DNA of 64,000 bases from Candidatus Kapaibacterium sp. (lineage in GTDB: Bacteria; Bacteroidota; Ignavibacteria; Kapaibacteriales; Kapaibacteriaceae). The stretch's first letter is position 1. Each line of letters begins with the position of its first letter. A program made the position numbers and the translations under genes. The stretch spans positions 178 through 64,177 of the forward strand of contig VEQR01000003.1 of the NCBI GenBank assembly GCA_018883125.1. Direction: 5' to 3'. The notes beneath the pieces were generated by a model. The model had not been told where the DNA came from and searched no databases. It saw only the letters and a list, made by a program, of their open reading frames with translations. Of the stretch, positions 812-63,810 are shown piece by piece.

Positions 812-816
812 GAGCG

Positions 817-939
817 CCGCTTCGCGGCGGGAAGTCTGCGACGGGACGCTGGCGCGGGAAGCCGCTTCGCGGCGGGAAGTCTGCGACGGGACGCTTGCGA
901 CGGGAAGCCGCTTCGCGGTGGGAAGTCTGCGACGGGAAG
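817..939. repeat. GC-rich tandem array with a 9-bp sub-period; 45-bp higher-order unit CCGCTTCGCGGCGGGAAG-TCTGCGACGGGACGCTGGCGCGGGAAG, about 2.7 copies
   Basis: Direct reading shows GGGAAG recurring at spacings of 27, 18, 27, 18 and 15 nt. The array starts 6 nt after the ruvA stop and ends 2 nt before the stop of the minus-strand gene at 942. Confidence 0.95.
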
Positions 940-941
940 CG

Positions 942-1373
942 CTATTTGTTCTTTGGCGTTATTGTTCTCCACGCTCGACGTTTGGCGATTCGCTCTCGGA
1001 ATGGCCCCTGATAGTTTGGTTCTCGTTCCATTTGTGCATTTGCCAGCTCAATGATCCCGATGGAAAGCTGCTTGCACTTTTGAATCAGTTTCCGATGTAG
1101 CTCCTCGTCGATGATGCCGCGGTTTAGAGCCCTATCAAGACAATTCAGAGTCTCTTGCGTCGAACCTTCAGCATACATGTAGAGCTGCAGTCGTTCCCCG
1201 ATTGCCACACGTCCGTATCCTTCAGCAATGTTGTTGGAAATCGAATCAGCAGCTCTCACAATCTGTTGGCCGAGTGTTCTCTTATGGAACTCCGGCCAGT
1301 TACAGACGAGGTTGGACACGGCATCAGAAAGATCAGTGGCGATCCCATATATGCGAAGTGATCGTATCGACAT
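942..1373 (-). CDS. Four-helix-bundle protein of the 23S rRNA intervening-sequence protein family (TIGR02436 / PF05635-like, Avd-related fold)
   Basis: From the internal ATG (cat at 1371-1373) the product is 143 aa: MSIRSLRIYGIATDLSDAVSNLVCNWPEFHKRTLGQQIVRAADSISNNIAEGYGRV...YMYAEGSTQETLNCLDRA. It carries the family signature Q..RAa.SI..NIAEG...GS..E. The upstream part of track ORF 942..1820 is translated repeat (REAAS)n, which I discard. Confidence 0.8.
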   Translation of the reverse strand: MSIRSLRIYGIATDLSDAVSNLVCNWPEFHKRTLGQQIVRAADSISNNIAEGYGRVAIGERLQLYMYAEGSTQETLNCLDRALNRGIIDEELHRKLIQKCKQLSIGIIELANAQMEREPNYQGPFRERIAKRRAWRTITPKNK

Positions 1374-1438
1374 GATTCGGTCTCCCTTTTTGTGCCCTAG
1401 TGCAAGAACGACCGCGGAACGTGACACCCAACCATAAG

Positions 1439-1600
1439 CGCCGCGAAGCGGCTTCCCGCGCCAGCTTCCCGCCGCGCAGCGGCTTCCCGTCGCAGACTTC
1501 CCGCTGCAAGCTTCCCGCCGCGAAGCGGCTTCCCGCCGCGAAGCGGCTTCCCGCCGCGAAGCGGCTTCCCGCCGCGAAGCGGCTTCCCGCTGCAAGCGCC
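1439..1600. repeat. GC-rich tandem array, unit CTTCCCGCCGCGAAGCGG (18 bp), which is the reverse complement of the 817-939 unit
   Basis: Direct reading shows four perfect consecutive 18-mers at about 1511-1582 plus diverged units. CTTCCCGTCGCAGA is the reverse complement of TCTGCGACGGGAAG in the left array. The array ends about 22 nt before the ATG at 1623. Confidence 0.95.
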
Positions 1601-1622
1601 CCACGCAGTATCTTCGCACATC

Positions 1623-2705
1623 ATGTGGAGATACCTGCTTAAGCGCATTGCGCTGTTCTTGCCAACACTCGTGATCATCACGATCATTTCGTTCGCCGTT
1701 AGCCGTCTGGCACCGGGAGATCCGGCCGCTGCAAAGGTGGGCCAAGGGTCGGATGGGAGCATGGGTGGACGCAGCACACTGAACGAGAAGACGATTGAAC
1801 TCATCCGTAAGCAGTGGCACCTGGATAAGCCGATCTGGCAGCAGTATATGATCTGGACAGGGGGCTTGCTGTGCTTCGATATGACCGAGGTATTTACCGA
1901 AAAGGGTACAAACTGGTCGGTAGCCTCGTTTACCGGACGTCCGGACTTCGGAAAGTCATTCATTGACAACCGTCCGGTGTTTGACAAGATGATCGAGCGT
2001 GTGCCCGTGACGCTGATCATGAACCTGCTGGCCATCATCATTGCCTACTCGATCGCCGTCCCGCTCGGTATCTACAGTTCCACGCATCCGGGGACGACCA
2101 CTGATAGGGTGACGACATTCATTCTGTTTGCGATGTACTCGCTACCCGTGTTCTGGATCGGCACGCTTGCCCTGACGTTTCTGGCTAACCCCGAGTTCGT
2201 CTCCATCTTCCCGTCAAGCGGACTACGCTCTCCGGCCTTTAGTGCGAACTGGTCTGCATGGAAGAAGCTCGCTGACTATTCGTGGCACCTTGCCTTGCCC
2301 CTTCTCGTGTACACATACGCCGATTTTGCCTTCATCTCGCGTCAGATGCGCTCATCGATGCTTGAAGTCATCCGTCAGGATTATATCCGAACCGCGCGCG
2401 CAAAGGGGCTGAGTGAGCGTACGGTCATCTACCGGCATGCACTGCGCAATGCCCTTATTCCGCTCATCACGCTCGTGGCCGCGCTTATTCCGAATCTGAT
2501 TGGGGGCTCGGTGATCATCGAGTCGATCTTCTCGATCCCCGGCATGGGCGAACTTTCCTTCCGCGCGCTGATCTCCCGAGACTATCCGATGATCATGGCC
2601 GTGTTCACCGTGTCGGCTGTGCTGACGCTTGTCGGCATGCTCGTTGCGGATTCGTTGTATGCCCTTGTCGATCCGCGCATCTCGTTTGGGAAGAAGTCGT
2701 CATGA
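1623..2705 (+). CDS. ABC transporter permease (oligopeptide/dipeptide type, DppB/OppB-like)
   Basis: The N-terminus MWRYLLKRIALFLPTLVIITIISFAVSRLAPGDP is the classic OppB/DppB start. The BPD_transp_1 region reads IRTARAKGLSERTVIYRHALRNALIPLIT. Confidence 0.85.
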   Translation: MWRYLLKRIALFLPTLVIITIISFAVSRLAPGDPAAAKVGQGSDGSMGGRSTLNEKTIELIRKQWHLDKPIWQQYMIWTGGLLCFDMTEVFTEKGTNWSVASFTGRPDFGKSFIDNRPVFDKMIERVPVTLIMNLLAIIIAYSIAVPLGIYSSTHPGTTTDRVTTFILFAMYSLPVFWIGTLALTFLANPEFVSIFPSSGLRSPAFSANWSAWKKLADYSWHLALPLLVYTYADFAFISRQMRSSMLEVIRQDYIRTARAKGLSERTVIYRHALRNALIPLITLVAALIPNLIGGSVIIESIFSIPGMGELSFRALISRDYPMIMAVFTVSAVLTLVGMLVADSLYALVDPRISFGKKSS

Positions 2706-3760: not shown

Positions 3761-3794
3761 CACCCGTCATTCCCGCGAAAGCGAGAATCCAGTT

Positions 3795-3960
3795 ACGAGA
3801 GACGAGAGACAAGAGACAAGAGACGAGAGACGGATCGTCCTTAATAGCCCCGGGCCTTGGCCCGGGGAACAAGAGACAAGAGACGGATCGTCCTTAATAG
3901 CCCCGGGCCTTGGCCCGGGGAACGAGAGACGAGAGACGGCAGCGTAATCAGTCATCAGTC
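3795..3960. repeat. Composite array: (G/A)AGAGAC heptamers plus two copies of a 53-bp module containing the hairpin CCCCGGGCCTTGGCCCGGGG (3848-3867 and 3901-3920), followed by a short GTCATCA stub
   Basis: Direct reading shows a hairpin-to-hairpin spacing of exactly 53 bp. The module is AAGAGACAAGAGACGGATCGTCCTTAATAG-hairpin-AAC. Confidence 0.95.
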
Positions 3961-3999
3961 ATTCGCACGCAGATCATCAGGCGCGCCGTAGTTTCGCAC

Positions 4000-5353: not shown

Positions 5354-5472
5354 GTGATGTTGGCCGAGAGGGTGTTTTTCGATGATTCAAGATAGGGAAG
5401 CAAAGCGCGAATTCTCGTATGTTTGCCGCATTCACGGACAACCGTGGTCGAATGAAATCGTGAAGGACAGAC

Positions 5473-7248: not shown

Positions 7249-7252
7249 CACT

Positions 7253-8314: not shown

Positions 8315-8350
8315 CGTGAAATGAACGACTCGGTTTTCTGTGCACCCACC

Positions 8351-8410
8351 ACTCCGTACTTCCGTACTTCCGTACTTCCGTAATTCCGTAACTCCGTAAT
8401 TCCCTCCGCC
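8351..8410. repeat. 8-mer tandem array NNTCCGTA (CTTCCGTA x3, ATTCCGTA, ACTCCGTA and others), 6-7 units
   Basis: Direct reading places it inside the nuoH-nuoI spacer. It ends at the base immediately before the nuoI ATG at 8411. Confidence 0.95.
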
Positions 8411-11577: not shown

Positions 11578-12684
11578 ATGAAATCGACAGTCATCTTTGG
11601 AATCAATGTTGCGGTAATGATAACGTTAGGAGTTCTTCCGGCGTTTACATCGGCACGCACGTCCATGATTCGTGGGCTCACAGCTAGTTCGCACTCCTTC
11701 TCGGTGCGTGATACGACAGACATCATGAATGACTATGATCCCGAAACCGAACGAACGGGGAATGACGTCCGTTACCAGGATCAATATCGTGGTCGCTCCA
11801 AATGGTCTTCACAGCAGTTCTCCACCTACGTTGATTCCGTCGGCCTTGAGAACCGTACCGGTCAGAGTGCTGCGGTTGCCCACATCATTTCAAGTATGCG
11901 TCAGGGCGATATGCAGGAGGCTCGAATGCGCCTGCAGAAGCTCATGGCTACGCCAGGATATATGCTTGATCCGGATGTGGCGCAGATGCTTACGGCTCTC
12001 GATGTTCTTCTTCAGCGCGACGCTAAAAATGGGAAGGCGCCGTTTATGGCAAACCGTCTTCCCCAGCGCGTTGATACGGTTTATCGAATCGATACGGTCT
12101 TGCGCGAGATTACACGCGTCGACACCGTCCGTTTGCCATCCCCGGACGTCGATCAGCCAATGACAACGTCCTCGTCCGAGCCAGACACCGTCTATGTTGA
12201 CGTAGTAAAGTATGATACGATCTACATCGATCGACAGGATACGACAGATCCGATGAAGGACCTTGCAGGAAGTGCCATTCCGGAACCTCCCGTGCAACCA
12301 ATGCAATCAAACGAAGGCATGTCGCCTGACGACGCTGCACTTGCCGGTAAGTTAGACATACTCACTGATGAAGTGCTGCGCTTGCGAAAGGAACTCCGTA
12401 AGCGCAACAGCACCCTCGACGATTCGGTTGTTACACGTCGTTGTTACACCATCCGTATCGCTTCGTTTGCAACACGCGATTCGGCCGAGCAGACTGTTCA
12501 GCGATTGAAAAAGACCTATAAACGCACTCGTTTAGCCATTGCTAATGGGGCTGAAAAGCCATTCTCCGTGATCGTCGGATACTATCAGACAATACGCGCG
12601 GCAACAGAAGATGCCGTAATGGTATCCAAGACCACAGGAAAGCCGTGCCAGCCAGTTATGACAACAATTGCCGAGCAACTGTAA
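11578..12684 (+). CDS. Hypothetical membrane-anchored protein with a possible C-terminal SPOR-like domain
   Basis: It has an N-terminal hydrophobic segment. The C-terminus YTIRIASFATRDSAEQTVQRLKKTY...FSVIVGYYQTIRAATE resembles a SPOR fold pattern. This is a weak call. Confidence 0.35.
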   Translation: MKSTVIFGINVAVMITLGVLPAFTSARTSMIRGLTASSHSFSVRDTTDIMNDYDPETERTGNDVRYQDQYRGRSKWSSQQFSTYVDSVGLENRTGQSAAVAHIISSMRQGDMQEARMRLQKLMATPGYMLDPDVAQMLTALDVLLQRDAKNGKAPFMANRLPQRVDTVYRIDTVLREITRVDTVRLPSPDVDQPMTTSSSEPDTVYVDVVKYDTIYIDRQDTTDPMKDLAGSAIPEPPVQPMQSNEGMSPDDAALAGKLDILTDEVLRLRKELRKRNSTLDDSVVTRRCYTIRIASFATRDSAEQTVQRLKKTYKRTRLAIANGAEKPFSVIVGYYQTIRAATEDAVMVSKTTGKPCQPVMTTIAEQL

Positions 12685-12829
12685 CTCCGTACCTCCGTCC
12701 CTCCGTCCCTCCGTACCTCCGTACCTCGGTCCCTCCGTACCTCGGTCCCTCCGTCCCTCCGTCCCTCCGTCCCTCCGTCCCTCCGTCCCTCCGTCCCTCC
12801 GTCCCTCCGTACCTCGGTCCCTCCGTACC
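12685..12829. repeat. 8-mer tandem array CTCCGT(C/A)C / CTCGGTCC, 18 units
   Basis: Direct reading shows it occupies the whole spacer between the TAA stop at 12682-12684 (+ gene) and the stop at 12830-12832 (- gene). Confidence 0.97.
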
Positions 12830-13444
12830 TCACAGCAGCTTCCTTAGCCCCGTTCTGCTATTAACCTGAAGCTTCTTGTACACATTGCGGATGTGTGTTT
12901 TTACGGTTTCTGGAGCGATGAACATTTCGTCGCTGATCTCCTTGTAGGACTTACCGAGTGCGAAGGCACGCATGATGTCCTCTTCACGGGGGGAGAGGTC
13001 GCTGAGATCAGTTTTGGGTCGGACCTTGTTACGAAAGGATTCGAGCGCTTTGCGAGCTACGGCGCTAGACATTGGAGAGCCCCCTCGCAAAAGATCCTCG
13101 ACGGCTGGCATGAGTTCAATGTGCAGCCGATCCTTCGTGATGTAGCCATTGGCACCGGAAACAATAGCTTCAAAGATCTTGGCGTTGTCCTCAAACGAGG
13201 ACACGACGAGGAACTCGGTGGACAGATTACGGCGTCTGCATTCTCGAAGTACAGAGAGTCCGGTTATATCTGGCAAAACGATATCAAGGAGCACGATGTC
13301 TGGCCGTATCTCGCGGATCTGTATAATGGCCTGACGACCGGATTCGGTCGTTCCTACGACGGACAGATTCTCGTTGCTTGAAACAAGTGACTTTATCTCT
13401 TCTGCAAAGATTGGATCGTCTTCGACGATAAGAATCGTTTTCAT
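12830..13444 (-). CDS. Two-component response regulator, NarL/LuxR family
   Basis: The receiver domain reads MKTILIVEDDP...DIVLLDIVLPDITG. The LuxR HTH reads LSPREEDIMRAFALGKSYKEISDEMFIAPETVKTHIRNVYKKLQV. The ATG is at 13444; the track ORF is longer. Confidence 0.88.
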   Translation of the reverse strand: MKTILIVEDDPIFAEEIKSLVSSNENLSVVGTTESGRQAIIQIREIRPDIVLLDIVLPDITGLSVLRECRRRNLSTEFLVVSSFEDNAKIFEAIVSGANGYITKDRLHIELMPAVEDLLRGGSPMSSAVARKALESFRNKVRPKTDLSDLSPREEDIMRAFALGKSYKEISDEMFIAPETVKTHIRNVYKKLQVNSRTGLRKLL

Positions 13445-18196: not shown

Positions 18197-18256
18197 TACC
18201 TGAATTACTGAATTACTGAATTACTGAGTTACTGAATTACTGAGTTACTGAATTAC
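18197..18256. repeat. 8-mer tandem array TTACTGA(A/G), about 7.5 units
   Basis: Direct reading shows it starts 2 nt after the TAG stop at 18192-18194. Confidence 0.95.
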
Positions 18257-18381: not shown

Positions 18382-18600
18382 TCATTCGGCGTTGTCATCC
18401 AGCAGGTCCCGTACCTTTCGGTTGAAAATGATAGAAATGCGCACGAGCACATCCAGGGTAGGGTTTTCTTTCCCCAGTTCCAGACGTGAGATGTAGTCGG
18501 AACTGAGCTTCACCTCGGCGGCCAGCATCTCCTGTGTCCATTTCATGCTCTGCCGGTGGCGCCGAACATTCCGACCTATTACTCTGCTTTCCTCACGCAT
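18382..18600 (-). CDS. XRE-family helix-turn-helix transcriptional regulator (72 aa)
   Basis: IGRNVRRHRQSMKWTQEMLAAEVKLSSDYISRLELGKENPTLDVLVRISIIF is a canonical HTH_3 domain. Confidence 0.8.
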   Translation of the reverse strand: MREESRVIGRNVRRHRQSMKWTQEMLAAEVKLSSDYISRLELGKENPTLDVLVRISIIFNRKVRDLLDDNAE

Positions 18601-18710
18601 AGCCCCATGCTACCGAGAATTGAAAGTCAGTCATTAGACCCAAAGAGCGAAAAATGTTGTGGTATTTTCGCGATTCACACACCCAACTCAAGCATCCACA
18701 TATTTGTAGC

Positions 18711-18837
18711 CGTCATCAGTCATCAGTCATCAGTCATCAGTCATCAGTCATCAGTCATCAGTCATCAGTCATCAGTCATCAGTCATCAGTCATCAGTCAT
18801 CAGTCATCAGTCATCAGTCATCAGTCATCAGTCATCC
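18711..18837. repeat. Heptamer tandem array GTCATCA: 17 perfect copies plus 1 variant
   Basis: Direct reading shows it ends 28 nt upstream of the ATG at 18866. Confidence 0.98.
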
Positions 18838-18865
18838 GTCCTGTGAGACTCGTACTTTTGCGTCC

Positions 18866-20973: not shown

Positions 20974-22494
20974 ATGGTTAAGCTGTCTGCAGTGCTCTCG
21001 GCACTTTCTCAGCGCATCTCCATGCAGATGCATCAAGAGCCCGATACCGTGGCGATACATGACGTCACAACGGATTCGCGCCTCGTCACACCGGGGACGA
21101 TCTTCGTTGCGATCGCGGGTACGAACTTCGACGGACACAACGCTGTGAGCGATGCCATCGCTCGGGGCGCTGCGGCAGTCGTGGTGGAGCGGGAACCAGA
21201 GAGCCCCCTAAGCATTCCGTCGATCACCGTTAAGGATTCCCGGAAGGCCTTCGCCGAGATCGTTGACCACGTGTTTGATCACCCCAGCCGTCCACTTCGG
21301 ATGTTTGGGGTGACCGGAACCAATGGCAAGACTACCTGCGCCACCCTCCTTGAGCAGATGTTTACGCTGGAAGGTCAGCGAGTCGGTTTCATCGGCACCA
21401 CCGGCAACCGGTATGGTGGACGCGAATACACCACGGAGTATTCCACGCCTCACGCACGCCAACTTGCCGAGCTGTTTCTTGCCATGCGCAGCGAATCAGT
21501 GGACACCGTCTGCATGGAGGTTAGCTCCCATGCCCTTTCGCAGCATCGTGTTCTGGGCATCGATTACCGAGGTGCGATCTTCACGAATCTTACTCGGGAT
21601 CATCTCGATTACCATGGCACCATGCAGGAGTATGCACGGTGCAAGAAGCTCCTCTTCGACGGACTCTCTGAGTCGGCCTCTGCTGTGCTCTGGGGCGACT
21701 CCGAATGGACGCCGTACATGAAGCGCGGATGTGTGGCTCGAAACGTTATCACCGTTGGGAAAGGGGCTGATAATCACGTCCGTGTGACGGATGTTCAGCT
21801 CTCGCTCACGGGTACCACGTTCACCCTGCAGCGCATGAGAGCCGATGCGGTGCTCGTGCCCGAGCAATGCACGATCGCTACCCGTCTTCTTGGCGAGTTC
21901 AATGTTGCCAATGCCGCGCTCGTTGCCGTTCTCTGCTTGCTTGATGGTATGTCTGCAGACCATGTTGTTGCACACATGGCGCAGGTGAGCGGTCCTAAAG
22001 GGCGCATGGAGGTTGTCAATATCCCCCACGGTCCAACGGCCATCGTGGATTACGCACACACTCCTGATGCCCTGGAGAGCGTTCTCGGCGTACTGCGCGG
22101 TCTGCATGTTTCCGCCGGATCTGCAGGCAAGATCCACGTCGTCTTCGGCTGCGGGGGCGATAGAGATAGGGGTAAGCGATCGGAAATGGGGCGGATTGCC
22201 TCGGAAATGGCCGACCACGTCTACGTTACCAGCGACAATCCTCGAACAGAATCACCGGCGGACATCATCGCTCACATCATGGGCGGCATCGACGGTCCGC
22301 ACCGCCCGCGCGTCACCGTCATCGAAGACCGACGTCAAGCCATTCATGCCGCACTCAATGCGGCTTCTCACGGCGATGTTGTGCTGGTCGCTGGTAAGGG
22401 GCACGAAGAAAATCAGATCATCGGCACTGAACGCCTGCCGTTTAGCGATATGGCAGAGGTTAGGAAGAGAATTACTGAATTACTGAATTACTGA
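20974..22494 (+). CDS. murE: UDP-N-acetylmuramoyl-L-alanyl-D-glutamate--2,6-diaminopimelate ligase
   Basis: VTTDSRLVTPGTIFVAIAG, GVTGTNGKTT, DYAHTPDAL and LVAGKGHE are Mur ligase / MurE motifs. The last 7 codons plus the stop (ITELLNY*) are encoded by the 8-mer array. Confidence 0.92.
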   Translation: MVKLSAVLSALSQRISMQMHQEPDTVAIHDVTTDSRLVTPGTIFVAIAGTNFDGHNAVSDAIARGAAAVVVEREPESPLSIPSITVKDSRKAFAEIVDHVFDHPSRPLRMFGVTGTNGKTTCATLLEQMFTLEGQRVGFIGTTGNRYGGREYTTEYSTPHARQLAELFLAMRSESVDTVCMEVSSHALSQHRVLGIDYRGAIFTNLTRDHLDYHGTMQEYARCKKLLFDGLSESASAVLWGDSEWTPYMKRGCVARNVITVGKGADNHVRVTDVQLSLTGTTFTLQRMRADAVLVPEQCTIATRLLGEFNVANAALVAVLCLLDGMSADHVVAHMAQVSGPKGRMEVVNIPHGPTAIVDYAHTPDALESVLGVLRGLHVSAGSAGKIHVVFGCGGDRDRGKRSEMGRIASEMADHVYVTSDNPRTESPADIIAHIMGGIDGPHRPRVTVIEDRRQAIHAALNAASHGDVVLVAGKGHEENQIIGTERLPFSDMAEVRKRITELLNY

Positions 22495-22621
22495 AGTACT
22501 GAATTACTGAAGTACTGAAGTACTGAAGTACTGAATTACTGAAGTACTGAAGTACAGAATTACTGAGGTACTGAATTACTGAAGTACAGAGGTACTGAAG
22601 TACAGAGGTACTGAATTACTG
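22471..22621. repeat. 8-mer tandem array, 19 units (ATTACTGA, AGTACTGA, AGTACAGA, GGTACTGA); left arm of an inverted pair
   Basis: Direct reading gives the unit order A A A B A B B B A B C A D A C D C D A. It begins inside the last codons of murE. Confidence 0.97.
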
Positions 22622-22629
22622 ACACAGAA

Positions 22630-22671
22630 AAACCGCAAGACGTGGGACAAACTCTCCACACCTTGCGGTTT
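22630..22671. terminator. Putative bidirectional intrinsic terminator hairpin (AAACCGCAAG ... CTTGCGGTTT)
   Basis: It has a 10-bp perfect stem (22630-22639 / 22662-22671) and a 22-nt loop. It is followed by a T-containing tract on the + strand (GATGGTCTTTATTTGTT) and by TTTTTCTGTGT on the - strand. It lies between the convergent genes murE and rpsU. Confidence 0.55.
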
Positions 22672-22734: not shown

Positions 22735-22860
22735 AAGTACTTCAGTAATTTAGTACTTCAGTACTTCAGTACTTCAGTAATTCAGTACTTCAGTAATTCA
22801 GTAATTCAGTAATTCAGTACTTCAGTAATTCAGTACTTCAGTAATTCAGTACTTCAGTAC
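22735..22860. repeat. 8-mer tandem array TCAGTAAT / TCAGTACT, about 16 units; right arm, the reverse complement of the 22471-22621 units
   Basis: Direct reading shows it abuts the rpsU stop codon (22861-22863). Confidence 0.97.
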
Positions 22861-23055
22861 TTATTCTTGTTCCATTTGTGCGCGGTGCTGACGACGCGCA
22901 GCCTTGAGACGAGACATGCGACGCTCGACGCTTGGCTTCACAAAGAAAGCGCGCTTCTTGAATTCGCGGAGAACGCCGGAGCGCTCATATTTCTTCTTGA
23001 AACGGCGAAGGGCACGGTCAATCGACTCATTGCTTTGTACGGTGACTCCGATCAC
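22861..23055 (-). CDS. rpsU: 30S ribosomal protein S21
   Basis: VTVQSNESIDRALRRFKKKYERSGVLREFKKRAFFVKPSVERR is canonical bS21. It has a GTG start. Confidence 0.92.
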   Translation of the reverse strand: MIGVTVQSNESIDRALRRFKKKYERSGVLREFKKRAFFVKPSVERRMSRLKAARRQHRAQMEQE

Positions 23056-25579: not shown

Positions 25580-25603
25580 GGATGCAAAACTAAATTTGTT
25601 CCT

Positions 25604-54051: not shown

Positions 54052-54078
54052 AAGAGCGCAAGTTACGGATAACGGGGT

Positions 54079-54140
54079 ACTGATGACTGATGACTGATGA
54101 CTGATTACTGATGACTGATTACTGATTACTGATTACTGAA
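54079..54140. repeat. Heptamer array ACTGATG / ACTGATT, about 9 units (left arm)
   Basis: Direct reading places it 28 nt upstream of the lepA start, in the divergent intergenic region. Confidence 0.95.
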
Positions 54141-54223: not shown

Positions 54224-54285
54224 AATCAGTAATCAGTAATCAGTAATCAGTAATCAGTAATCAGTCATCAGTAATTGGTCATCAG
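54224..54285. repeat. Heptamer array AATCAGT x6, then CATCAGT and related units (right arm, reverse complement of the left arm)
   Basis: Direct reading shows AATCAGT is the reverse complement of ACTGATT. Confidence 0.95.
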
Positions 54286-54836: not shown

Positions 54837-54866
54837 GGGGGCGAGTCATGTAGTCGTCGGCACTCT

Positions 54867-56911: not shown

Positions 56912-56923
56912 TGTCAGTGACAA

Positions 56924-57195
56924 GTTACGAGAGACGAGAGACAGATCGTCGTTAATAGCCCCGGGCCTTGGCCCGGGGTACGAGAGACGAGAGACAGATC
57001 GTCGTTAATAGCCCCGGGCCTTGGCCCGGGGTACGAGAGACGAGAGACAGATCGTCGTTAATAGCCCCGGGCCTTGGCCCGGGGTACAAGAGACGAGAGA
57101 CAGATCGTCGTTAATAGCCCCGGGCCTTGGCCCGGGGTACAAGAGACGACAGACAGATCGTCGTTAAAAGCCCCGGGCCTTGGCCCGGGGATAGC
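56924..57195. repeat. Five tandem copies of a 53-bp module: (G/A)AGAGACGAGAGACA-GATCGTCGTTAATAG-CCCCGGGCCTTGGCCCGGGG-TAC
   Basis: Direct reading places the hairpins at 56959-56978, 57012-57031, 57065-57084, 57118-57137 and 57171-57190, an exact 53-bp period. The copies are nearly identical. Confidence 0.97.
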
Positions 57196-57216
57196 ATAGA
57201 CGTATCGTCACGTTCT

Positions 57217-58683
57217 TCAGTACGCGCGTGCAAACAGCACGCGTTGAGTGCTTGGCTTGCCAGTGCGGATGCATGTGCCGACTTCTTGTGGGTTGTCGAG
57301 AGGGATGCAGCGGATCGTGGCCTTCGTCTCGTCCTTGATGAGGTCTTCAGTTTCTGAGGTGCCATCCCAGTGGGCGCTGACAAAGCCCCCTGGCCCATCG
57401 AGTGTGGCCACGAATTCCTCCCACGTGTCAACGCGGGTGATGTGCGAGTCGCGATAGGCCTTGGCACGGTCGAACATCGACTGCTGGATCTCCACCAGCA
57501 AGGCAACGATGCCGTCGGCAAGTCCTTCGAGTGGCATGTTCTCTTTTGTGCGCGTGTCGCGTCGGGCAACTTCCACGGTGCCATTGGCAAGGTCGCGTGC
57601 ACCCACGGCAATGCGGACCGGGATACCGAGCTTTTCGTATTCAGCAAACTTGAAGCCCGGACGACTCTGATCGTCAGTATCGATCTTCACACGAACGCCG
57701 CGAGCGCGGAGCTCGCTGGCGATGCCGGTGATGTGCGGATCAAGTTCGGCAAGGGGCTTCGGGATCGGAACGATCACCACCTGGTGCGGCGCCAGCTTTG
57801 GTGGAATCATCAGTCCATCGTCGTCAGAATGCACCATCACTAGGGCGCCCATTAGGCGCGTGCTGACGCCCCATGAGGTAGCCCAGACGTATTCGAGGGT
57901 GTTGTCCTTGGAACTGAACTGTACGTCAAAGGCCTTGGCAAAGTTCTGACCAAGGAAGTGCGATGTACCAGCCTGCAAGGCTTTCCCGTCCTGCATCAGT
58001 GCTTCGATGCAGTAGGTGTCTTCGGCACCGGCAAAGCGCTCGTTCGGAGTCTTAACTCCCTTGACCACCGGAATAGCCATCCACTCTTCGGCAAACGTCG
58101 CATACACGTCGAGCATCTTACGCGTCTCCTCGATGGCTTCTTCCCGCGTTGCATGCGCGGTGTGGCCTTCTTGCCAAAGGAACTCGGCAGTTCGCAGGAA
58201 CAGGCGTGTGCGCATCTCCCAGCGCACCACGTTGGCCCACTGATTGATGAGAAGGGGCAGGTCTCGATATGATTGGATCCAATCGCGATAGGTATTCCAG
58301 ATGATCGTTTCCGATGTGGGACGCACGATCAGCTCTTCTTCGAGGCGTGCGTCTGGGTCGACCACGACACCGCTGCCATCCTCGGCATTCTTCAGACGGT
58401 AATGCGTTACAACGGCACATTCCTTCGCAAATCCTTCTACGTGGGCGGCCTCCTTGCTTAGGAAGCTCTTCGGGATGAACAGCGGGAAGTAGGCGTTCAC
58501 GTGACCCGTGTCCTTGAACATCCGGTCCAACGTATCGCGCATGTTTTCCCAGATTGCAAAGCCGTAGGGCTTTATGACCATGCACCCTTTAACGGCGGAA
58601 TAATCGGCCAGACCTGCCTTACGGACGAGGTCAATGTACCACTGCGAGTAATCGTCCGCTCTGGACGTAATGTCTTTGCTCAT
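57217..58683 (-). CDS. proS: Proline--tRNA ligase (archaeal/eukaryotic-like type)
   Basis: [58 protein letters not shown] and the C-terminal ...RVLFARAY are canonical for the ProRS type lacking the INS domain. Confidence 0.93.
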
Positions 58684-58694
58684 AGACGAGCAAG

Positions 58695-58926
58695 TTACGG
58701 AGCGTAAGAATTACTGAAGTACGGAATTACGGAAGTACTGAAGTACGGAATTACGGAAGTACTGAAGTACGGAATTACGGAAGTACTGAATTACGGAAGT
58801 ACTGAGTTACTGAATGACGGAATTACGGAGCTCAATGCTAATTACGTAATTAAGTAATCAAGTAATTGAGTACTTCCGTAATTCAGTACTTCCGTAATTC
58901 AGTACTTCCGTAATTCAGTAATTCGC
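58695..58926. repeat. 8-mer arrays forming one long imperfect palindrome: the left arm has a 24-bp higher-order unit (TACTGAAG-TACGGAAT-TACGGAAG), the right arm a 16-bp higher-order unit (TACTTCCG-TAATTCAG), with symmetry centre GAGCTC at 58828-58833
   Basis: Direct reading shows it fills essentially the whole spacer between the proS start (58683) and the upstream gene stop (58928). Confidence 0.95.
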
Positions 58927-58927
58927 C

Positions 58928-59728
58928 TCACCGTTTTCCTTCAAACAGGTACACCACCTGACCATCCGGAGAAACATAGACGGCGTTGCGGACCTGATTA
59001 TCAATACCTGGGACGACCTCCGCAGGTTCCAGACCCTGGTTGCTCAGTCGGTTGATGCGCTGCACCATATCCGGCATGAAGTAGGTGAGCGTAAGTGACG
59101 GTACGTCTCGGCCCTGGTGGATTCCGATCTCTGTAAAGCCGCTTGTCATGTTGACGTACTTATACGGGATGCTATCTCCACGGACGACCTTAAAGCCGAG
59201 CTTGGACCACCAGTCTCTCTCTGTACTGAGGACCTCGGCGGCAGTGCTCAGTTCCGTGAGCTTTCCGCAGACCGGATTCATTTCGGTTGTTGGGCGGATT
59301 TCGGTTTCGACCTTCTTGGGTCGAATGGTTGCAAAGACGCTGTTGGGCGAGCGCAGGCGGATCTCGCGGAGTGTTGAGTCCTGCGTTGCCGCATCCGATC
59401 GAAACCCCAGACCATCAAGAGCGCGCTTGGTTGCCTCAAGATCTTCGACGCTGAAGATCAGCGCCGGTGACGGTTGTGACTTGCGCACCAGCGTTATCAC
59501 AACCTGTCCGTCGGTTAGCGTCAACGCCGAGTCCACACGGTCGCCCGGACGCCTGATTGGCGAAAAGCCGAGCCGTGCCCACCACGTGAGCGATTCGAGC
59601 AGATCACGGCTGGTGAGCTCAATGCGAACGGCAGAAAAGAGATCAACCTTTGATGCCGGACTCTGGGAGAGAGCTGGCATTGAGGCCACTGCGATCATGC
59701 ACGCGATAGTCAGTCGAAGATTTGTCAT
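58928..59728 (-). CDS. Secreted protein with two VOC/glyoxalase-like repeats (tentative)
   Basis: It has a signal peptide. [14 protein letters not shown] and [12 protein letters not shown] resemble glyoxalase/VOC beta-alpha-beta-beta-beta starts. It has a 4-nt overlap with ruvB. Confidence 0.4.
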
Positions 59729-60756
59729 ACGTCGTCATTCGAAAATAAGGTCGTTGGGGAATTCGGTGCGCTCAATCCCATGTGTCGATAGGCAAGGGGC
59801 GTAGCGGTACGTCCGCGTGGCGTCCGCTGTAGAAATCCCTGCTGTATCAGAAATGGCTCGTAGACTTCTTCAAGTGTGCCTGCATCCTCGCCCACGGCAA
59901 CTGCAAGTGTGGATATCCCTACCGGACCGCCATTGAACTTCTCGATCAGCGCCAGTATCACGCGCGTGTCCATCTCATCCAGGCCGAACTCATCAACGTC
60001 CAGGGCCTCAAGCGCCATGCGGGCAACTTCACGTGTGATGGTTCCGCCCCCTTTCACATCAGCAAAATCCCGTGTGCGACGCAGCAGGCGATTGGCAATG
60101 CGCGGGGTTCCCCGGGCACGGCGCGCAAGCTCATTTGTTCCATCGTCGTGGATCGGCACTCCGAGCAGGGCGGCACTTCGACGGATGACCATCGCAAGGT
60201 CTGCAGCGTCGTAGTAATCAAGACGATTTGTGATGCCAAAGCGGGACCGTAAAGGGGCTGTGAGCAGACCCTGACGTGTTGTTGCCCCAACAAGGGTGAA
60301 GCGGGGAATGGAGAGCTGCACCGAGCGGGCAGCCGGACCCGAGTCGATCATGATGTCGAGCCGGAAGTCCTCCATAGCTGAATAGAGGTATTCCTCAACC
60401 ACCGGTGAGAGTCGATGAATCTCATCGATGAACAGAATGTCGTTCTCGTCCAGACTCGTCAGCAGTCCAGCAAGATCTCCCGGCTTTTCGAGCACGGGTC
60501 CGGATGTGATCTTGATCTGCGCATTCATCTCTCGCGCGATGATGTGCGAAAGCGTGGTCTTTCCCAAACCCGGAGGTCCGGTCAGCAGCACATGGTCGAG
60601 CGATTCACCTCGCCCCCTTGCCGCAGCGATAAAGACCTTCAGATTCTCAACGATCTTCCGCTGTCCGGTAAAATCGTCGAACGATATCGGGCGCAACGAT
60701 GCATCAACGTCATCATCACGACGCACCGGATCTGTTGAAGTATTTGGACGAGACAT
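59725..60756 (-). CDS. ruvB: Holliday junction branch migration DNA helicase RuvB
   Basis: [12 protein letters not shown], Walker [20 protein letters not shown] and the C-terminal winged helix are canonical. The ATG is at 60756; the track uses a TTG at 60759. Confidence 0.96.
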
Positions 60757-60764
60757 CAATGGAA

Positions 60765-61050
60765 ATTACGGAGTTACTGAGGTATGGAATTACTGAATTA
60801 CTGAATTACTGAATTACTGAATTACTGAATTACGAGAGTTACGAGAGTTACGAGAGTTACGAGAGTTACGAGAGTTACGAGAGTTACAGAGTGACGAGAG
60901 TTACGAGAGTTACAGAGTTAAGGAGGTACTCCAACATTGGTGAGCAACTCCGTAATTCGGTACCTCCGTAATTCAGTACCTCCGTAATTCAGTACCTCCG
61001 TAATTCAGTACCTCCGTAATTCAGTACCTCCGTAATTCAGTACCTCCGTA
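60765..61050. repeat. Composite array: TTACTGAA 8-mers (x5), then TTACGAGAG 9-mers (about 9), a short core, then the 16-bp higher-order unit TACCTCCGTAATTCAG (x6) in inverted orientation
   Basis: Direct reading shows it occupies nearly all of the 304-bp divergent spacer between ruvB and bamD. Confidence 0.96.
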
Positions 61051-61060
61051 ACTTCGAACT

Positions 61061-61807
61061 ATGTTTCGTTTGTTCATTCCACTTTTTGCCGTGCTTGGCA
61101 TCGTTCTCAGTGCGTGCTCCTCTGCGGAGGGGGCGAAGAAGTCCAAGACTGTTGACGAGATCTACACCGAGGCCAAGGCGGCGTACGACGACGACAACTG
61201 GCTTGAGGCGCAGGCAAAGTTTGATGTGATTAAACTCCAGTACCCGGCATCGCAGTATGCAGATGACGCGCAGTACTACCTGGCAGAGATCAATTTCCAG
61301 CGGAGTGAGTATATCATGGCGGCGTTCAACTATAACCAGTTGCGCCGGTCTTATCCGTCGAGTGAGTTTGTTCGTGAGGCGATGTATAAAGCAGCATTGT
61401 GTTACGATAAGATCGCACTACCGGCCGATAGGGATCAGGAGAATACTCGCAAGGCGATCATGGCGTACACGGACTTTCAGTCTATGTACATGCGCGACTC
61501 ACTAGGACTCGAGGCAACCAAGCGGATCCGTGAACTTCGGGACAGACTTGCCGAGCGGTTCTGGCTGGCTGCCGAGCACTATATCCGCACCTACGCCCGC
61601 CGGGCAGCGATCATTCAGTACGATGCGATCATCGACGAGTATCCGGACAGCAAGTGGCTCGAACCGGCGCTGGTTCAGAAGATCGACGTACTTATCCAGC
61701 TTCAGCGAAATGACGAGGCGCGCACGGCCATCGCTGCCTACCGGCGGATGGTGAAACAACCTGAGCAAAGATCCGTCGTCGACGCACTAGAGAAGGGAAT
61801 CAAATGA
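61061..61807 (+). CDS. bamD: Outer membrane protein assembly factor BamD
   Basis: It has a lipobox (VLSACSS). The TPR-like BamD/YfiO pattern reads IYTEAKAAYDDDNWLEAQAKFDVIKLQYPASQYADDAQYYLAE. Confidence 0.8.
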   Translation: MFRLFIPLFAVLGIVLSACSSAEGAKKSKTVDEIYTEAKAAYDDDNWLEAQAKFDVIKLQYPASQYADDAQYYLAEINFQRSEYIMAAFNYNQLRRSYPSSEFVREAMYKAALCYDKIALPADRDQENTRKAIMAYTDFQSMYMRDSLGLEATKRIRELRDRLAERFWLAAEHYIRTYARRAAIIQYDAIIDEYPDSKWLEPALVQKIDVLIQLQRNDEARTAIAAYRRMVKQPEQRSVVDALEKGIK

Positions 61808-62283
61808 AGACGCCGGCAGAAAGCACCGTGGTGATGACCGAGCTTGTGCTACCCAACGACACCAACTATCTCGGAAACCTCCTTGGTGGCCGACTCATGC
61901 ACTGGATCGACATCGCCGCCGCTCTGAGCGCCATGCGCCACAGCGGCAAGGTCTGTGTAACGGCCTCTGTCGATGAGATCAACTTTAACGAGCCCATCAA
62001 GCTCGGGCACGTCGTACACATATCATCCATTCTGACGCGGGCATTCCATACCTCCATGGAGGTGTTCGTTCACGTCGAACGAGAAGACCCGCTCAACGGA
62101 ACCCGCACGCGGACCTCGGAAGCGTACCTGACCTTTGTTGCCATCGATCAATATGGCAAGCCCCTTCCCGCACCGCCCCTCGAACCACAGACCGACGAGG
62201 AAAAACTTCGCTACGAAGAAGCATCCATGCGTCGCGAGATCCGCCTGCGTCAGCGTGAGGTTATGAAGGCCCGCCGGGGATGA
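61804..62283 (+). CDS. Acyl-CoA thioesterase (hotdog fold, YciA-like)
   Basis: VMTELVLPNDTNYLGNLLGGRLMHWIDIAAA...ASVDEINFNEPIKLG is a typical acyl-CoA thioester hydrolase. Confidence 0.8.
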   Translation: MKTPAESTVVMTELVLPNDTNYLGNLLGGRLMHWIDIAAALSAMRHSGKVCVTASVDEINFNEPIKLGHVVHISSILTRAFHTSMEVFVHVEREDPLNGTRTRTSEAYLTFVAIDQYGKPLPAPPLEPQTDEEKLRYEEASMRREIRLRQREVMKARRG

Positions 62284-63557
62284 TGCGACGCATCGTCCTG
62301 ATCCTCTTTTTGTTGATGCCGGGCATCGCCGGCTACGGTGCTGATGTTGTTGTTCGAATGATCCGCGCCTACGGTGGTTCCAACGAAGCGCTACCCCCGG
62401 TGGTTGTGTTGAGTGCGGAGAAAGGGGGCGATGTAGGATCCAACTCTGTGACGATCGAGTTCGACGTGTCGGCATCCTCCATCCCCAACGTCTATGCACG
62501 CATTGTGCATTGCAATGCCGACTGGACGCCGGATGAGAATGGATTTCTCTCCGATGTGAACAACCGCACCACGCTCGTTGATTGGAAAATCATGCCGGCC
62601 AGATCCACCTATTCGGGATATCGTGGAATGCTGTCGCTGCCAAATGTTCAGACCTCCATACGGTTCTCCGGGAATTGGCTGGTGAAGATCCACGATCTGG
62701 ATAGTGACTCACTCATTGCCGAGACCCGGTTCTTTGCCGTCGAGACCCGTGCGACGATTCGCATGAATTTCATGACGGATTTCTACCAGCCCCGCTACCG
62801 CGTCAGCGGAACAGCCTATACCATCGAGACGATGGTGCAGGACAACACTGCACGCCTGCTCTCGACGAATCTTCACACTGTTGTGCTGTATCGTAACAAC
62901 CGCTGGTACGACCCATTCATTGCCTCAGAGCGGCTGCGGTCGGTCGTAAATCCTGGTACGATCGGGTCGGACATTCTCGGCATGGTGCAGGGAGGAAAGA
63001 TCTTTCGTGTCTCTCGCATACCGGCACAGAACGAGTATCGCGTGCTGGATGTCTCCAACCCCGGACGGTTCCCCTCCACAGGCCAGCCGATCCCGATCGG
63101 ACTCTCGGACATCCGTCGCAACGGGATGTTTGTGCAGCGCGCCGATGACGGTGCAATGCTGGCAGGGGGCATTTCAAACGCCATTGATGAGTTCGTTCCC
63201 GTGGAGTTCCTGTTGGACCCAACGCCCGGCGGAGCGAGTGACGACGACATCTTCGTCGCGGGGTCCTTCAATAACTGGCGTCCGAACCGGGATTGGATGA
63301 TGTACTTCGATGCACAGCTGAGACTCTATCGCCTCCGCCAATGGGTCCGCCGCGGACGTCACAACTACCTCTATGCGAATGGTCGTATCAGTGCGGATTC
63401 CTACGATGCTATCAACGTGAACTACGAGGAATTCGAAGGCAATACCGCCTCGGCGAATAACACGTTCATTTCCTTCGCCTACTACCGCGAACTCGACTAC
63501 GGTGGATACGACGGCATCGTTGCCGTAGGTGCCGGCACGATGTACGGCAACAAGTGA
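62280..63557 (+). CDS. DUF5103 / type IX secretion system plug-like protein
   Basis: It has a signal peptide. YARIVHCNADWTPDENGFLSD...SIRFSGNWLVKIHD resembles, from my recollection, the conserved HCNADWTPS...SGNYLLKVY block of DUF5103 (T9SS_plug_1st). Confidence 0.55.
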   Translation: MMRRIVLILFLLMPGIAGYGADVVVRMIRAYGGSNEALPPVVVLSAEKGGDVGSNSVTIEFDVSASSIPNVYARIVHCNADWTPDENGFLSDVNNRTTLVDWKIMPARSTYSGYRGMLSLPNVQTSIRFSGNWLVKIHDLDSDSLIAETRFFAVETRATIRMNFMTDFYQPRYRVSGTAYTIETMVQDNTARLLSTNLHTVVLYRNNRWYDPFIASERLRSVVNPGTIGSDILGMVQGGKIFRVSRIPAQNEYRVLDVSNPGRFPSTGQPIPIGLSDIRRNGMFVQRADDGAMLAGGISNAIDEFVPVEFLLDPTPGGASDDDIFVAGSFNNWRPNRDWMMYFDAQLRLYRLRQWVRRGRHNYLYANGRISADSYDAINVNYEEFEGNTASANNTFISFAYYRELDYGGYDGIVAVGAGTMYGNK

Positions 63558-63810
63558 CGAGAGACGAGAGACGAGAGACGAGTGACAAGTGACGAGAGAC
63601 GAGAGACAAGAGACGAGAGACGAGAGACAAGAGACGAGAGACGGGTGGTAGACCCCGCTAATAGCCCCGGGCCTTATTAGCCCCGGGCCTTGGCCCGGGG
63701 TACGAGAGACGAGAGACAAGAGACGAGAGACAAGAGACGAGAGACGAGAGACGAGAGGATACTCCGTAATTCAGTAATTCAGTAATTCAGTAATTCAGTA
63801 ATTCCGTCCC
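63556..63810. repeat. Composite array: GAGAGAC/AAGAGAC heptamers (about 12), a hairpin module (a partial CCCCGGGCC copy plus the full CCCCGGGCCTTGGCCCGGGG at 63680-63699), heptamers (about 8), then CCGTAATT/CAGTAATT 8-mers (about 6)
   Basis: Direct reading shows it fills the entire convergent spacer from the TGA at 63555-63557 to the era stop at 63811-63813. Confidence 0.96.

Follow-up and report, generated by a model that had tools for sequence, protein, structure and literature searches.

The intergenic DNA of a 64,000-nucleotide stretch of Candidatus Kapaibacterium sp. (contig VEQR01000003.1; hereafter, the window) was found to be crowded with tandem arrays of 7-, 8-, and 9-bp units, and the orientation of these arrays relative to the adjacent gene border was fixed in nine of nine informative regions. 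This agrees with the original prediction, made from the sequence alone, that the arrays are less random than ordinary microsatellites. We consider it probable that they are microsatellites made by slippage and seeded locally, which are confined between coding ends and true signals, are dispensable, and have passed through a filter for orientation.

Arrays were detected with Tandem Repeats Finder (TRF) and by direct reading of the sequence; their amount was counted at a TRF score of at least 50, and the gene map was self-built from open reading frames (ORFs), Pfam matches, and start and stop contexts. The analysis covers this one 64-kb window and comparison loci that were selected by pattern; since the assemblies are metagenomic, copy numbers may be imprecise. 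The arrays are genuine. All of those predicted were recovered with coordinates within a few bases (816-939, 1439-1598, 3795-3962, 8353-8403, 12685-12831, 18200-18256, 18712-18840, 22469-22622, 22736-22862, 54079-54139, 54224-54285, 56926-57190, 58695-58926, 60764-61056, and 63556-63810), and they totaled 2125 nt, somewhat below the ∼2.3 kb of an earlier hand count. With 5 to 19 units per array and 80 to 99% matches in TRF, they are long simple-sequence repeats, a class delimited by head-to-tail units of 1 to 11 nt in runs exceeding chance length for the genome. Confinement to intergenic DNA, for which a comparison with coding DNA had been proposed, was strict: arrays took up 2093 of ∼3890 non-coding bases (54%) and 32 of 60110 coding bases (0.05%), and of the 19 intergenic regions with a length of 30 bp or more, 13 contained them. 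In coding sequences, single 8-mer-family units occurred at chance level (0.48/kb, with 0.48/kb expected from base composition) and outside them at 26.9/kb, 56 times the composition expectation. The sole substantial coding overlap was with the last ∼8 codons of murE (20974-22494), where it had been placed, and the TGA stop of a 425-aa gene (g425) also fell within its array. A predicted distance of 0 to 15 nt to the flanking codons held for stop codons (0 to 5 nt at 9 of them) and was somewhat generous for start codons, where we found 4 to 27 nt at 8 codons; 6 other borders were 26 to 101 nt away. A CRISPR array was ruled out, as the units are contiguous without unique spacers; the window gave no Rfam match at gathering thresholds and contained no tRNA or tmRNA genes.

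That the arrays are an assembly artefact, or else classical phase-variation (contingency) loci, is barely credible. Short-read contigs do often break at arrays, as seen at many metagenome contig ends, so that exact copy numbers are uncertain. For example, the independent Joint Genome Institute contig L091, whose products are identical to those of the window genes g248 and g159, begins 13 nt ahead of the g248 ATG, precisely where the array at 60948-61056 has its inner edge, as expected from a short-read assembly break at an array. This 1.3-kb contig was all that an exact-protein look-up with g248 yielded, and such look-ups with g425, ruvA, lepA, proS, and SnoaL found no record. However, arrays with unique flanks were found in the interior of contigs as long as 516 kb, across many independent assemblies, and also in the genome of the isolate Poritiphilus flavus, and they are imperfect, with ordered unit variants. 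Copy number does vary between strains, in line with phase variation, but the neighbors are housekeeping genes (proS, lepA, ruvA/B, nuoH/I, rpsU, and murE) and not surface or virulence genes, and the arrays lie outside ORFs and outside the interval from the −7 box to the ATG.

The units form one inter-related family, as had been proposed, with every unit type linked by single steps. A census of the window counted the 8-mers TTACTGAA (29), GTACTGAA (25), TTACGGAG (10), TTACGGAA (9), GGACGGAG (9), GTACGGAG (6), and GTACGGAA (5) and the 7-mers TGACTGA (24) and TTACTGA (10), in addition to arrays of the 9-mer TTACGAGAG and the 7-mer ACGAGAG. Different unit types were mixed inside one array, which also had been recognized before, and several arrays contained super-units of 16 or 24 nt, e.g., (TTACGGAG GTACTGAA) x6.5 at 60948-61056. 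Together with the single-step variants, these super-units point to growth by local multi-unit duplication and not by templated addition. Palindromic cores were present in many units, such as AGTACT in GTACTGAA tandems and AATT in TGAATTAC, and one relative uses the fully palindromic octamer TTACGTAA as a unit (L081, 10469-10520). The ACGAGAG, CTCCGTCC, GTCATCA, and GC-rich arrays were without stop codons in some frames and therefore leave spurious ORFs of 60 to 100 aa, which automatic annotation could mistake for genes (3767-3955, minus strand; 12645-12869, 18556-18846, and 1400-1642, plus strand).

For the analysis of orientation, plus-strand KTACKGAA-type and ACGAGAG units were coded as ">" and their complements as "<". 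All six two-armed regions (ABC2/hisA, murE/rpsU, lepA/SnoaL, proS/g266, ruvB/g248, and g425/era) read ">...<", and the three one-armed regions with a clear side had ">" by the left gene or "<" by the right gene. This rule was independent of gene arrangement and applied to convergent, divergent, and co-directional pairs alike: the G-richer (forward) strand ran 5' to 3' away from the adjacent gene, i.e., sense after stop codons and antisense before start codons. RNA leaving a gene is the G-richer strand and RNA entering from outside the C-richer one. In a test independent of gene calls, which considered adjacent arrays no more than 200 bp apart with opposite GC skew in all fetched loci, the G-rich-then-C-rich order was observed 33 times and the reverse order 5 times (binomial p=4e-6). 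The same tendency emerged when sides were assigned by ORFs, with counts of 10:1 for the window and of 35:13 and 32:12 for two further sets; this assignment is crude, as genes of <90 aa are missed, and the gene-call-free test is the reliable one. In several Kapabacteria-like contigs, even arm families that are not complementary to each other still obeyed the order (e.g., GAAGTACG with ACCTCAC, and GATGACG with GTAATTCA). Polarity rather than complementarity is the general rule, and its fixedness implies some strand-specific constraint.

Several candidate causes of the orientation were tried and rejected or weakened. Replication strand does not explain it, since the two arms of one region are opposed, yet cumulative GC skew climbs steadily across the window. 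Neither does a "translation safety" of start and stop codons, because the main units are equal on both strands in this respect, with no ATG, GTG, or TTG on either strand and a stop codon (TGA or TAA) in both orientations. Quadruplex formation as a filter fails as the main units cannot form one: GG tracts were present only in the GGACGGAG array at 12685-12831, and TTACTGAA, GTACTGAA, and TGACTGA have 1 or 2 isolated G. Hairpin formation as a universal principle is weakened by the non-complementary arms that keep polarity. The occurrence of polarity in octamers without G-quadruplex (G4) capacity and in non-complementary arms argues against both quadruplex and hairpin as the common cause.

Between the arrays and the coding ends, or in the center between two arms, we found a conserved terminator and Bacteroidetes-type −7 boxes located 4 to 9 nt before the ATG. 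The motif TAnnTTTG occurs only 8 times in the window, counting both strands, and 4 of these copies precede the ATG of a long ORF by 4 to 5 nt, a placement that was repeated at orthologous genes in the relatives L081 to L089. Sites of this kind in the window were at 18853-18860 and 25591-25598 and, on the minus strand, before the ORFs ending at 34734 and ∼25590. The proS, lepA, and PD40-repeat genes instead carry TAACTTGC or TAACTTGT 7 to 9 nt before the ATG, which matches the TAnnTTGY variant found at −12 to −5 in Flavobacterium psychrophilum (PMC9723704). Judged from the sequence, a −7 box 4 to 9 nt before the ATG would place the transcription start at the ATG or a few nucleotides from it. 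This suggests that leaderless or near-leaderless mRNAs may be widespread in the lineage of the window. By comparison, leaderless transcripts make up only ∼5.5% of the mRNAs of Flavobacterium (PMC9723704). With leaderless-type starts, the upstream arrays would be promoter-upstream DNA and not 5' untranslated region. The extended box cCGTAAnTTG begins with 8 nt that are identical to the upstream unit TTCCGTAA. A simple terminator scan was uninformative, since its loop limit misses the conserved rpsU terminator.

One way to read the polarity is that the arrays are insulators of gene borders, selected to stop RNA polymerase from entering a gene from outside. Read-through at the 5' side or antisense transcription at the 3' side would yield an untranslated YC-repeat RNA that recruits Rho, or a template structure would block the polymerase, and outgoing transcription would be spared. 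Such a function, for which we see a limited chance, would account for the universal rule, i.e., polarity to the gene border whatever the orientation of the gene, and for its retention in loci with non-complementary arms (L133, L153, L165, and L209). The −7 boxes between array and ATG are consistent with it, as leaderless-type mRNAs would exclude the upstream array; so are the single arms, which are repetitive, not self-complementary, and hence unstructured, the existence of strongly C-rich outward units (CTCCGTCC, CTCTCGT, ACCTCAC, and CCCAAAA), and the identical polarity of repeats in Xanthomonas and Nostoc. However, the commonest outward unit, TTCAGTAA, has equal numbers of C and G and is a poor candidate for a Rho utilization (rut) site. 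Moreover, the sense-oriented, C-rich nuoH/nuoI array would cause polarity inside what is usually a single operon, and relatives lack arrays at the same sites with no obvious replacement. The broader version, a general cross-phylum system whose unit is free to drift and which would act through Rho on C-rich RNA and/or through template structure or R-loops, is doubtful. In that case the G-quadruplex would not be the operative feature, since non-G4 octamers share the geometry of the G4-capable Xanthomonas heptamers.

Comparison with relatives revealed how readily the arrays change or disappear. The placement of the DNA in the Fibrobacteres-Chlorobi-Bacteroidetes (FCB) group, earlier proposed from gene content, was supported by the members of the rpsU 90% cluster, which are labeled Candidatus Kapabacteria, Ignavibacteria, or Bacteroidota, and agrees with the gene content, which includes a type IX secretion system (T9SS) tail and, among relatives, BshC, as well as with promoter boxes of the Bacteroidetes type. 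The DNA is thus from an uncultured bacterium of Kapabacteria/Ignavibacteria-like affiliation. Among the matches listed, the proS product shared 70 to 78% identity with many Bacteroidota proteins, and its identity to the product of contig L001 from a lake metagenome-assembled genome (MAG) was 96%. Syntenic relatives were obtained by an exact-protein look-up with rpsU, and their genomes were 76 to 82% identical at the DNA level. The convergent rpsU/murE region, which in the window spans 366 bp and has KTACKGAA arms, contained TACGGAGG, 33-nt hairpin repeats, and CGTAATTA in L081, L082, and L086 (245 to 440 bp); GGTTTTG-type arms with complementary partners in L083, L085, and L087 (159 to 197 bp); and TTACGGAA arms together with an array of TTTTGGG that emerges from the T-tract of the terminator in L089 (221 bp). 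No arrays were present in L084 and L088 (45 bp) or in L213 to L219, where the region has a constant length of 101 bp in seven contigs and contains two terminator hairpins. Telomere-like G/T-rich heptamers (GGTTTTG, TAGGTTT, and TTTTGGG) were observed by rpsU and nuoI in L083, L085, L087, L089, and L090.

A check for copy-number polymorphism, as had been suggested, was run on the genomes of these relatives and revealed whole-unit differences between near-identical genomes. The flanks of the rpsU/murE region are 99.99% and 99.3% identical between L081 and L086, yet two 33-nt units and one 8-nt unit are different; L085 and L087, which are 95% identical, differ by two heptamers. In L001 (84% nucleotide identity; closest by proS among the matches listed), ruvB, proS, and the PD40-repeat gene stand in a row with short, array-free spacers, in which CTCCGTAAATTG and TTTCGTAACTTC boxes persist as single copies 6 nt upstream of the ATGs, and the same MAG has GGTTTTG-type arrays elsewhere (L085). 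Units turn over, and the absence of arrays from orthologous sites in relatives demonstrates that they are dispensable. The record of this MAG (JBILLF01) is titled "Patescibacteria group bacterium" though its contigs carry proS, ruvB, rpsU, murE, BshC, and further genes in synteny with the window, so that the label or the bin looks wrong. Synteny between the window (58684-63810) and L001 (1-5600) is broken: the order in L001 is g159-g425-ruvB-proS-PD40, all co-directional, and the window has the g248-g159-g425 block in inverted orientation with respect to ruvB and carries an extra 266-aa gene without Pfam match (g266) between ruvB and proS. All of these breakpoints fall in array-filled regions. 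Beyond the syntenic relatives, short-unit arrays, often in inverted pairs, were present in many of 80 Bacteroidota loci obtained with proS, including P. flavus, and three tandem KTACKGAA units were found in at least 120 metagenome loci on contigs of 28 to 70% GC. A collection of 2.9 million viral contigs yielded only 1 match, and an association with phages was rejected.

Some two-armed regions would form large secondary structures. Single-strand folding predicted giant hairpins of 80 to 150 bp in four regions (murE/rpsU, −222; lepA/SnoaL, −149; ruvB/g248, −128; and proS/g266, −113 kcal/mol), compared to −48 to −88 kcal/mol for shuffled controls, and the fold was lost if one arm was flipped. 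Smaller GC hairpins of three kinds are dispersed in the window and its relatives; the arrays themselves are not palindromic units. The module CCCCGGGCC-TT-GGCCCGGGG was present in three regions, always within ACGAGAG heptamers as a 53-nt composite unit with 93 to 100% identity across the three loci, and also in the metagenome locus L186. GCCGC-TTCG-GCGGC is the building block of the GC-rich inverted arrays at 816-939 and 1439-1598. The palindrome GTCATTCCCGCGAAAGCGAGAATC (∼3766-3790) recurs as a 39-nt tandem unit x9 in L083 (13996-14500) and at 660-690 of L186, and resembles the dRS3-type repeats, ATTCCC...GGGAAT, that are part of the Neisseria intergenic mosaic elements (NIME). Repetitive extragenic palindromes (REP), their bacterial interspersed mosaic elements (BIME), and the Neisseria NIME are intergenic mosaics in which small GC-rich palindromes in inverted arrangement are joined with other repeats, with proposed roles in termination or mRNA stability. 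Elements of the REP/BIME type are imperfect palindromes of 20 to 40 nt that occur dispersed, frequently as inverted pairs, and have a cognate REP-associated tyrosine transposase (RAYT). The hairpin modules CCCCGGGCCTTGGCCCGGGG, GTCATTCCCGCGAAAGCGAGAATC, and GCCGCTTCGCGGC look REP-like; the bulk of the repeats in the window, however, is head-to-tail microsatellite and not dispersed single palindromes, and the arms are not always complementary. No RAYT-type transposase turned up in the window, where no systematic search for RAYT genes was made.

The arrays might be viewed as hairpin elements analogous to REP/BIME, in which the arms pair as RNA or as a DNA cruciform to serve as a bidirectional terminator, RNase III site, or 3'-end protector. 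This would fit the four folds far below those of shuffled sequences, the interleaving of REP-like GC hairpins with the arrays, and the covariation of the rpsU/murE arms between species (GTACTGAA:TTCAGTAC, TAGGTTT:AAACCTA, and TTTTGGG:CCCAAAA). Nevertheless, we consider it unlikely. A conserved conventional terminator already occupies the center, so the arms would normally be in different transcripts, and arms of divergent regions, being located upstream of promoters of the leaderless type, cannot share a transcript. In addition, many relatives pair non-complementary arms yet retain polarity, and the two arms do not mirror each other in the order of their unit variants.

A mobile foldback- or MITE-like (miniature inverted-repeat transposable element) sequence with terminal inverted arrays, inserted into many intergenic regions, is highly improbable as well. 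One palindromic family of this kind would give identical polarity at every locus, and the ACGAGAG-hairpin composite at three loci, the coincidence of the synteny break relative to L001 with array-bearing regions, and the small opposite-strand genes between arms could be explained in this way. But an all-against-all BLAST of 18 intergenic regions detected only arrays and the hairpin module as shared sequence, with no common core, and the center of the rpsU/murE region is the ancestral terminator, which is also kept in relatives with other units. Arms of different unit families are freely combined in relatives, viral contigs provided the single match mentioned above, and no transposase was noticed among the scanned flanking genes.

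We therefore return to locally seeded, slippage-made, self-renewing microsatellites with filtered orientation as the favored explanation. The original prediction had argued for an active generating mechanism or a selected function, which holds only in part. The polarity does imply a strand-specific constraint, but the arrays are dispensable, and whole-unit copy changes, multi-unit super-repeats, and unit turnover indicate ordinary slippage or unequal exchange. We infer slippage as the generator, the promoter box as a seed, and the nature of the filter from these sequence patterns. Arrays would be born from short local seeds, such as the promoter box at 5' flanks and, in one relative, the terminator T-tract: in L089, the TTTTGGG array runs straight on from the T-run of the rpsU terminator, so that local seeding is visible there. 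They would then be resized by slipped-strand mispairing or unequal exchange, by one or several units per event, and deletion of other, non-functional spacer would leave the succession of coding end, array, real signal, array, and coding end. Finally, a strand-specific, transcription-linked filter would either favor expansion in one orientation or purge the other. In its mutational version, R-loop-prone G-rich transcripts would promote expansion; in its selective version, C-rich untranslated repeat RNA would recruit Rho, or a G-rich template would block the polymerase. The link to transcription is the remaining coherent idea for the filter.

Several observations weigh against this explanation. 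The commonest unit, TTACTGAA, is itself free of GC skew, and a purely compositional filter therefore fails to account for its polarity. One unit family occurs at many unlinked loci and at both 5' and 3' flanks, and local seeding fits only the 5' flanks well. A lineage-wide trans-acting cause may also be involved; arrays are far more abundant in the window than in its relatives. Arrays were present at rpsU/murE in 5 of 7 lineages and are rare elsewhere in those relatives, which suggests a persistent hotspot or selection. Furthermore, copy numbers in metagenome assemblies could be partly collapsed.

The genes flanking the arrays are ordinary chromosomal genes, i.e., ruvA, two ABC permease genes, a hisA-like gene, nuoG/H/I, and genes for a SPOR-domain protein, a response regulator, a T9SS lectin-like protein, and dihydroorotate dehydrogenase (DHODH), murE, rpsU (22861-23055, minus), lepA, a SnoaL-like gene, a PD40-repeat gene, proS (a 488-aa ORF at 57217-58683, minus, for prolyl-tRNA synthetase), ruvB, and YfiO-like and Era-like genes. 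At the left end of the window, the GC-rich array 816-939 (plus) is located between the ruvA stop and the stop of a four-helix-bundle gene and consists of a 45-nt unit x2.7 with the GCCGC-TTCG-GCGGC hairpin inside. Its inverted partner at 1439-1598 (minus), with the 18-nt unit CGCCGCGAAGCGGCTTCC x9.7 and an 87% match to the reverse complement of 816-939, lies upstream of two genes, that for the four-helix bundle and one for an ABC permease. The four-helix-bundle gene (942-1375, minus; 23S_rRNA_IVP family, Pfam PF05635) has ruvA and the ABC permease gene as neighbors, is encoded on the strand opposite to theirs, and, bracketed by the two inverted arrays, resembles a small inserted cassette. In the region between the ABC permease and hisA-like genes, the left arm (3795-3939, plus) comprises ACGAGAG/ACAAGAG heptamers twice interrupted by a 39-nt module, which carries the CCCCGGGCC-TT-GGCCCGGGG hairpin (53-nt composite unit x2.3). 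The short right arm (3947-3962, minus; ATCAGTC x2.3, equal to minus-strand TGACTGA) is located 37 nt upstream of the hisA-like ATG, with a −7-like box, TAGTTTCG, in between.

The nuoH/nuoI array (8353-8403, minus; TTACGGAA/GTACGGAA x6, reading TCCGTAAT on the plus strand) lies 7 nt before the nuoI ATG. Between the SPOR-domain and response-regulator genes, the array at 12685-12831 (minus; GGACGGAG/GTACGGAG x18, reading CTCCGTCC on the plus strand) fills the region wholly from stop codon to stop codon. TTACTGAA x7 at 18200-18256 (plus) begins ∼5 nt past the stop of the T9SS lectin-like gene, and a near-perfect TGACTGA x18 array (18712-18840, minus; GTCATCA on the plus strand) lies upstream of the DHODH gene, followed by a perfect −7 box, TACTTTTG, at 18853-18860 and the ATG at 18866. 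A 72-aa XRE-type helix-turn-helix gene (18382-18600, minus) is located on the opposite strand between these ">" and "<" arrays and looks like an insertion into the center of a two-armed intergenic region. The left murE/rpsU arm (22469-22622, plus; GTACTGAA/TTACTGAA x19) includes the last 8 codons and the stop of murE, and the right arm (22736-22862, minus; GTACTGAA/TTACTGAA x16, with the 16-nt super-unit AGTACTTCAGTAATTC on the plus strand) abuts the rpsU stop. The two arms flank the central intrinsic terminator of rpsU (22623-22671, minus; AAACCGCAAGG...CTTGCGGTTTTTCT), which is itself not an array and is kept in L081, L082, L086, and L089.

In the divergent lepA/SnoaL region, TGACTGA/TTACTGA x8.7 (54079-54139, plus) lies 27 nt upstream of the start of lepA, a minus-strand gene, with a TAACTTGC box at 54058-54065 between array and start; the right arm (54224-54285, minus) is TTACTGA/TGACTGA x8, reading AATCAGT on the plus strand. 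Between the start of the PD40-repeat gene and the proS stop, the array at 56926-57190 (plus) contains the 53-nt composite x5, made up of two ACGAGAG, GATCGTCGTTAATAG, and the CCCCGGGCC-TT-GGCCCGGGG hairpin. Upstream of proS, the left arm (58695-58829, plus) has TTACGGAA/GTACTGAA/GTACGGAA x16 with a 24-nt super-unit x5, and a TAACTTGC box (58690-58697) lies between the array and the ATG. The right proS/g266 arm (58839-58926, minus; TTACTGAA/TTACGGAA/GTACTGAA x10, GTAATTCA on the plus strand) follows after ∼10 to 16 nt, and 4 nt separate its gene-proximal end from the stop codon of g266 (266 aa, 58928-59728). Between ruvB and g248, the left arm (60764-60920, plus) begins 4 nt upstream of the start of ruvB, a minus-strand gene, and consists of TTACTGAA x8 directly followed by TTACGAGAG 9-mers x10; the last unit of the right arm (60948-61056, minus; TTACGGAG GTACTGAA pairs x6.5) merges into the GTAACTTCGAACT-ATG of the YfiO-like gene (61061). 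In the left arm of the g425/era region (63556-63757, plus), GACGAGA x12.6, in which the TGA stop of the 425-aa gene lies, is followed by two CCCCGGGCC hairpin modules and then by ACGAGAG x8. The right arm (63766-63810, minus; TTACTGAA x5, reading GTAATTCA on the plus strand) abuts the stop (63811-63813) of the Era-like gene, which runs off the window.

The earlier suggestion of an undescribed repeat system did not stand, as the class is already published (long simple-sequence repeats, TAACTGA repeats, and Xanthomonas and Nostoc heptamers). What is new is the lineage, the units, and the extreme density; the class itself is known. No literature on such repeats in Kapabacteria was found. The short tandemly repeated repetitive (STRR) heptamers of cyanobacteria reportedly go back to work by Mazel in 1990. 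STRR1 to STRR3 of heterocystous cyanobacteria have the consensus units CCCCAGT, TTGGTCA, and CAACAGT, none of which was present in the TRF table of the window. The arrays described here share with STRR and other long simple-sequence repeats the tandem units on a 7-nt scale, several families per genome, an intergenic position, a sporadic occurrence among lineages, and the attribution to slippage; the lineage and the unit sequences are different. Mrazek 2007, cited after the summary in PMC4679880, describes long simple-sequence repeats with units of 5 to 11 nt, heptamers being commonest, and attributes them to polymerase slippage. In satellite surveys, >4 satellites per Mb have been termed "rich" (Subirana and Messeguer 2019, PMC6749651), a level exceeded by the ∼19 arrays of the 64-kb window.

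Intergenic TAACTGA repeats of up to 43 copies occur in Beggiatoaceae, Cyanobacteria, and five Bacteroidetes, with long arrays in the Bacteroidetes Gramella and Aequorivita; they are mixed with other heptamers and are missing from the same spacers in close relatives (MacGregor 2015, PMC4679880). TTACTGA and TGACTGA are one substitution away from this unit and are likewise intergenic, near start codons, and part of heptamer mixtures. In contrast, 8-mers dominate in the window, and an exact TAACTGA tandem was absent from both strands, with one single copy in 64 kb. The orientation also differs: in Beggiatoaceae, the forward strand precedes starts, whereas in the window the forward strand follows stops and the reverse strand precedes starts, so that upstream arrays read TCAGTAA/TTCCGTAA on the sense strand, the reverse of TAACTGA. 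A sequence-specific DNA- or RNA-binding protein with a post-transcriptional or transcriptional regulon, as proposed for the Beggiatoaceae repeats, might use such arrays as binding sites, and the shared core (TTAC/GTAC...GA) one substitution from TAACTGA, the position near start codons, and the palindromic cores of the units (AGTACT and TTACGTAA) would be compatible with that. We nonetheless regard this possibility as very unlikely, given that unit identity is not kept at one site even between close relatives, that the flanking genes are unrelated housekeeping genes, that an exact TAACTGA tandem is lacking in the window, and that the upstream arrays are opposite to the Beggiatoaceae orientation and lie beyond the −7 box, probably outside the mRNA.

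The closest geometry was found in the dispersed intergenic tandem repeats GGGAATC of Xanthomonas and GGGGAYT of Nostoc PCC 7120, which show a strong non-coding bias (Rehm et al. 2015, PMC4692102). The class has GGGNATC units, whose G-tracts can form a G-quadruplex, and prefers arrays of four. The 5' side of the G-rich strand is nearer to the ORF irrespective of ORF orientation; the repeats lie sense within 50 bp after stops, often overlapping them, or antisense within 50 bp before ORFs, form 70 to 75 convergent inverted pairs per genome, and have housekeeping neighbors (PMC4692102). Both copy number and sequence vary among close relatives, copy number for instance between Xcc and Xac, and a function was not identified (PMC4692102). 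All elements of this geometry recurred in the window, i.e., polarity (9/9), convergent pairs, and the stops of murE and g425 inside arrays. The window differs in that its units, for the most part 8-mers along with some 7- and 9-mers, carry one or few G and cannot form a G-quadruplex, in the lack of a four-copy preference (5 to 19 units here), in that divergent regions are not avoided, in phylum, and in a local density that is ∼8-fold higher (∼300 arrays/Mb, compared to 186 per ∼5 Mb).

Knowledge of short-unit intergenic repeats dates back to the STRR studies of 1990. The window represents an extreme case, in which over half of the non-coding DNA of a little-studied, Kapabacteria-like FCB lineage is tandem array. 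In practical terms, such arrays break short-read assemblies and inflate spurious ORF calls, and their recognition improves the annotation of MAGs. The published gene-border polarity is extended here to non-G4 octamers, to Bacteroidota, and to non-complementary arm pairs (33:5, p=4e-6), and the constraint to which it points is strand-specific and probably linked to transcription.

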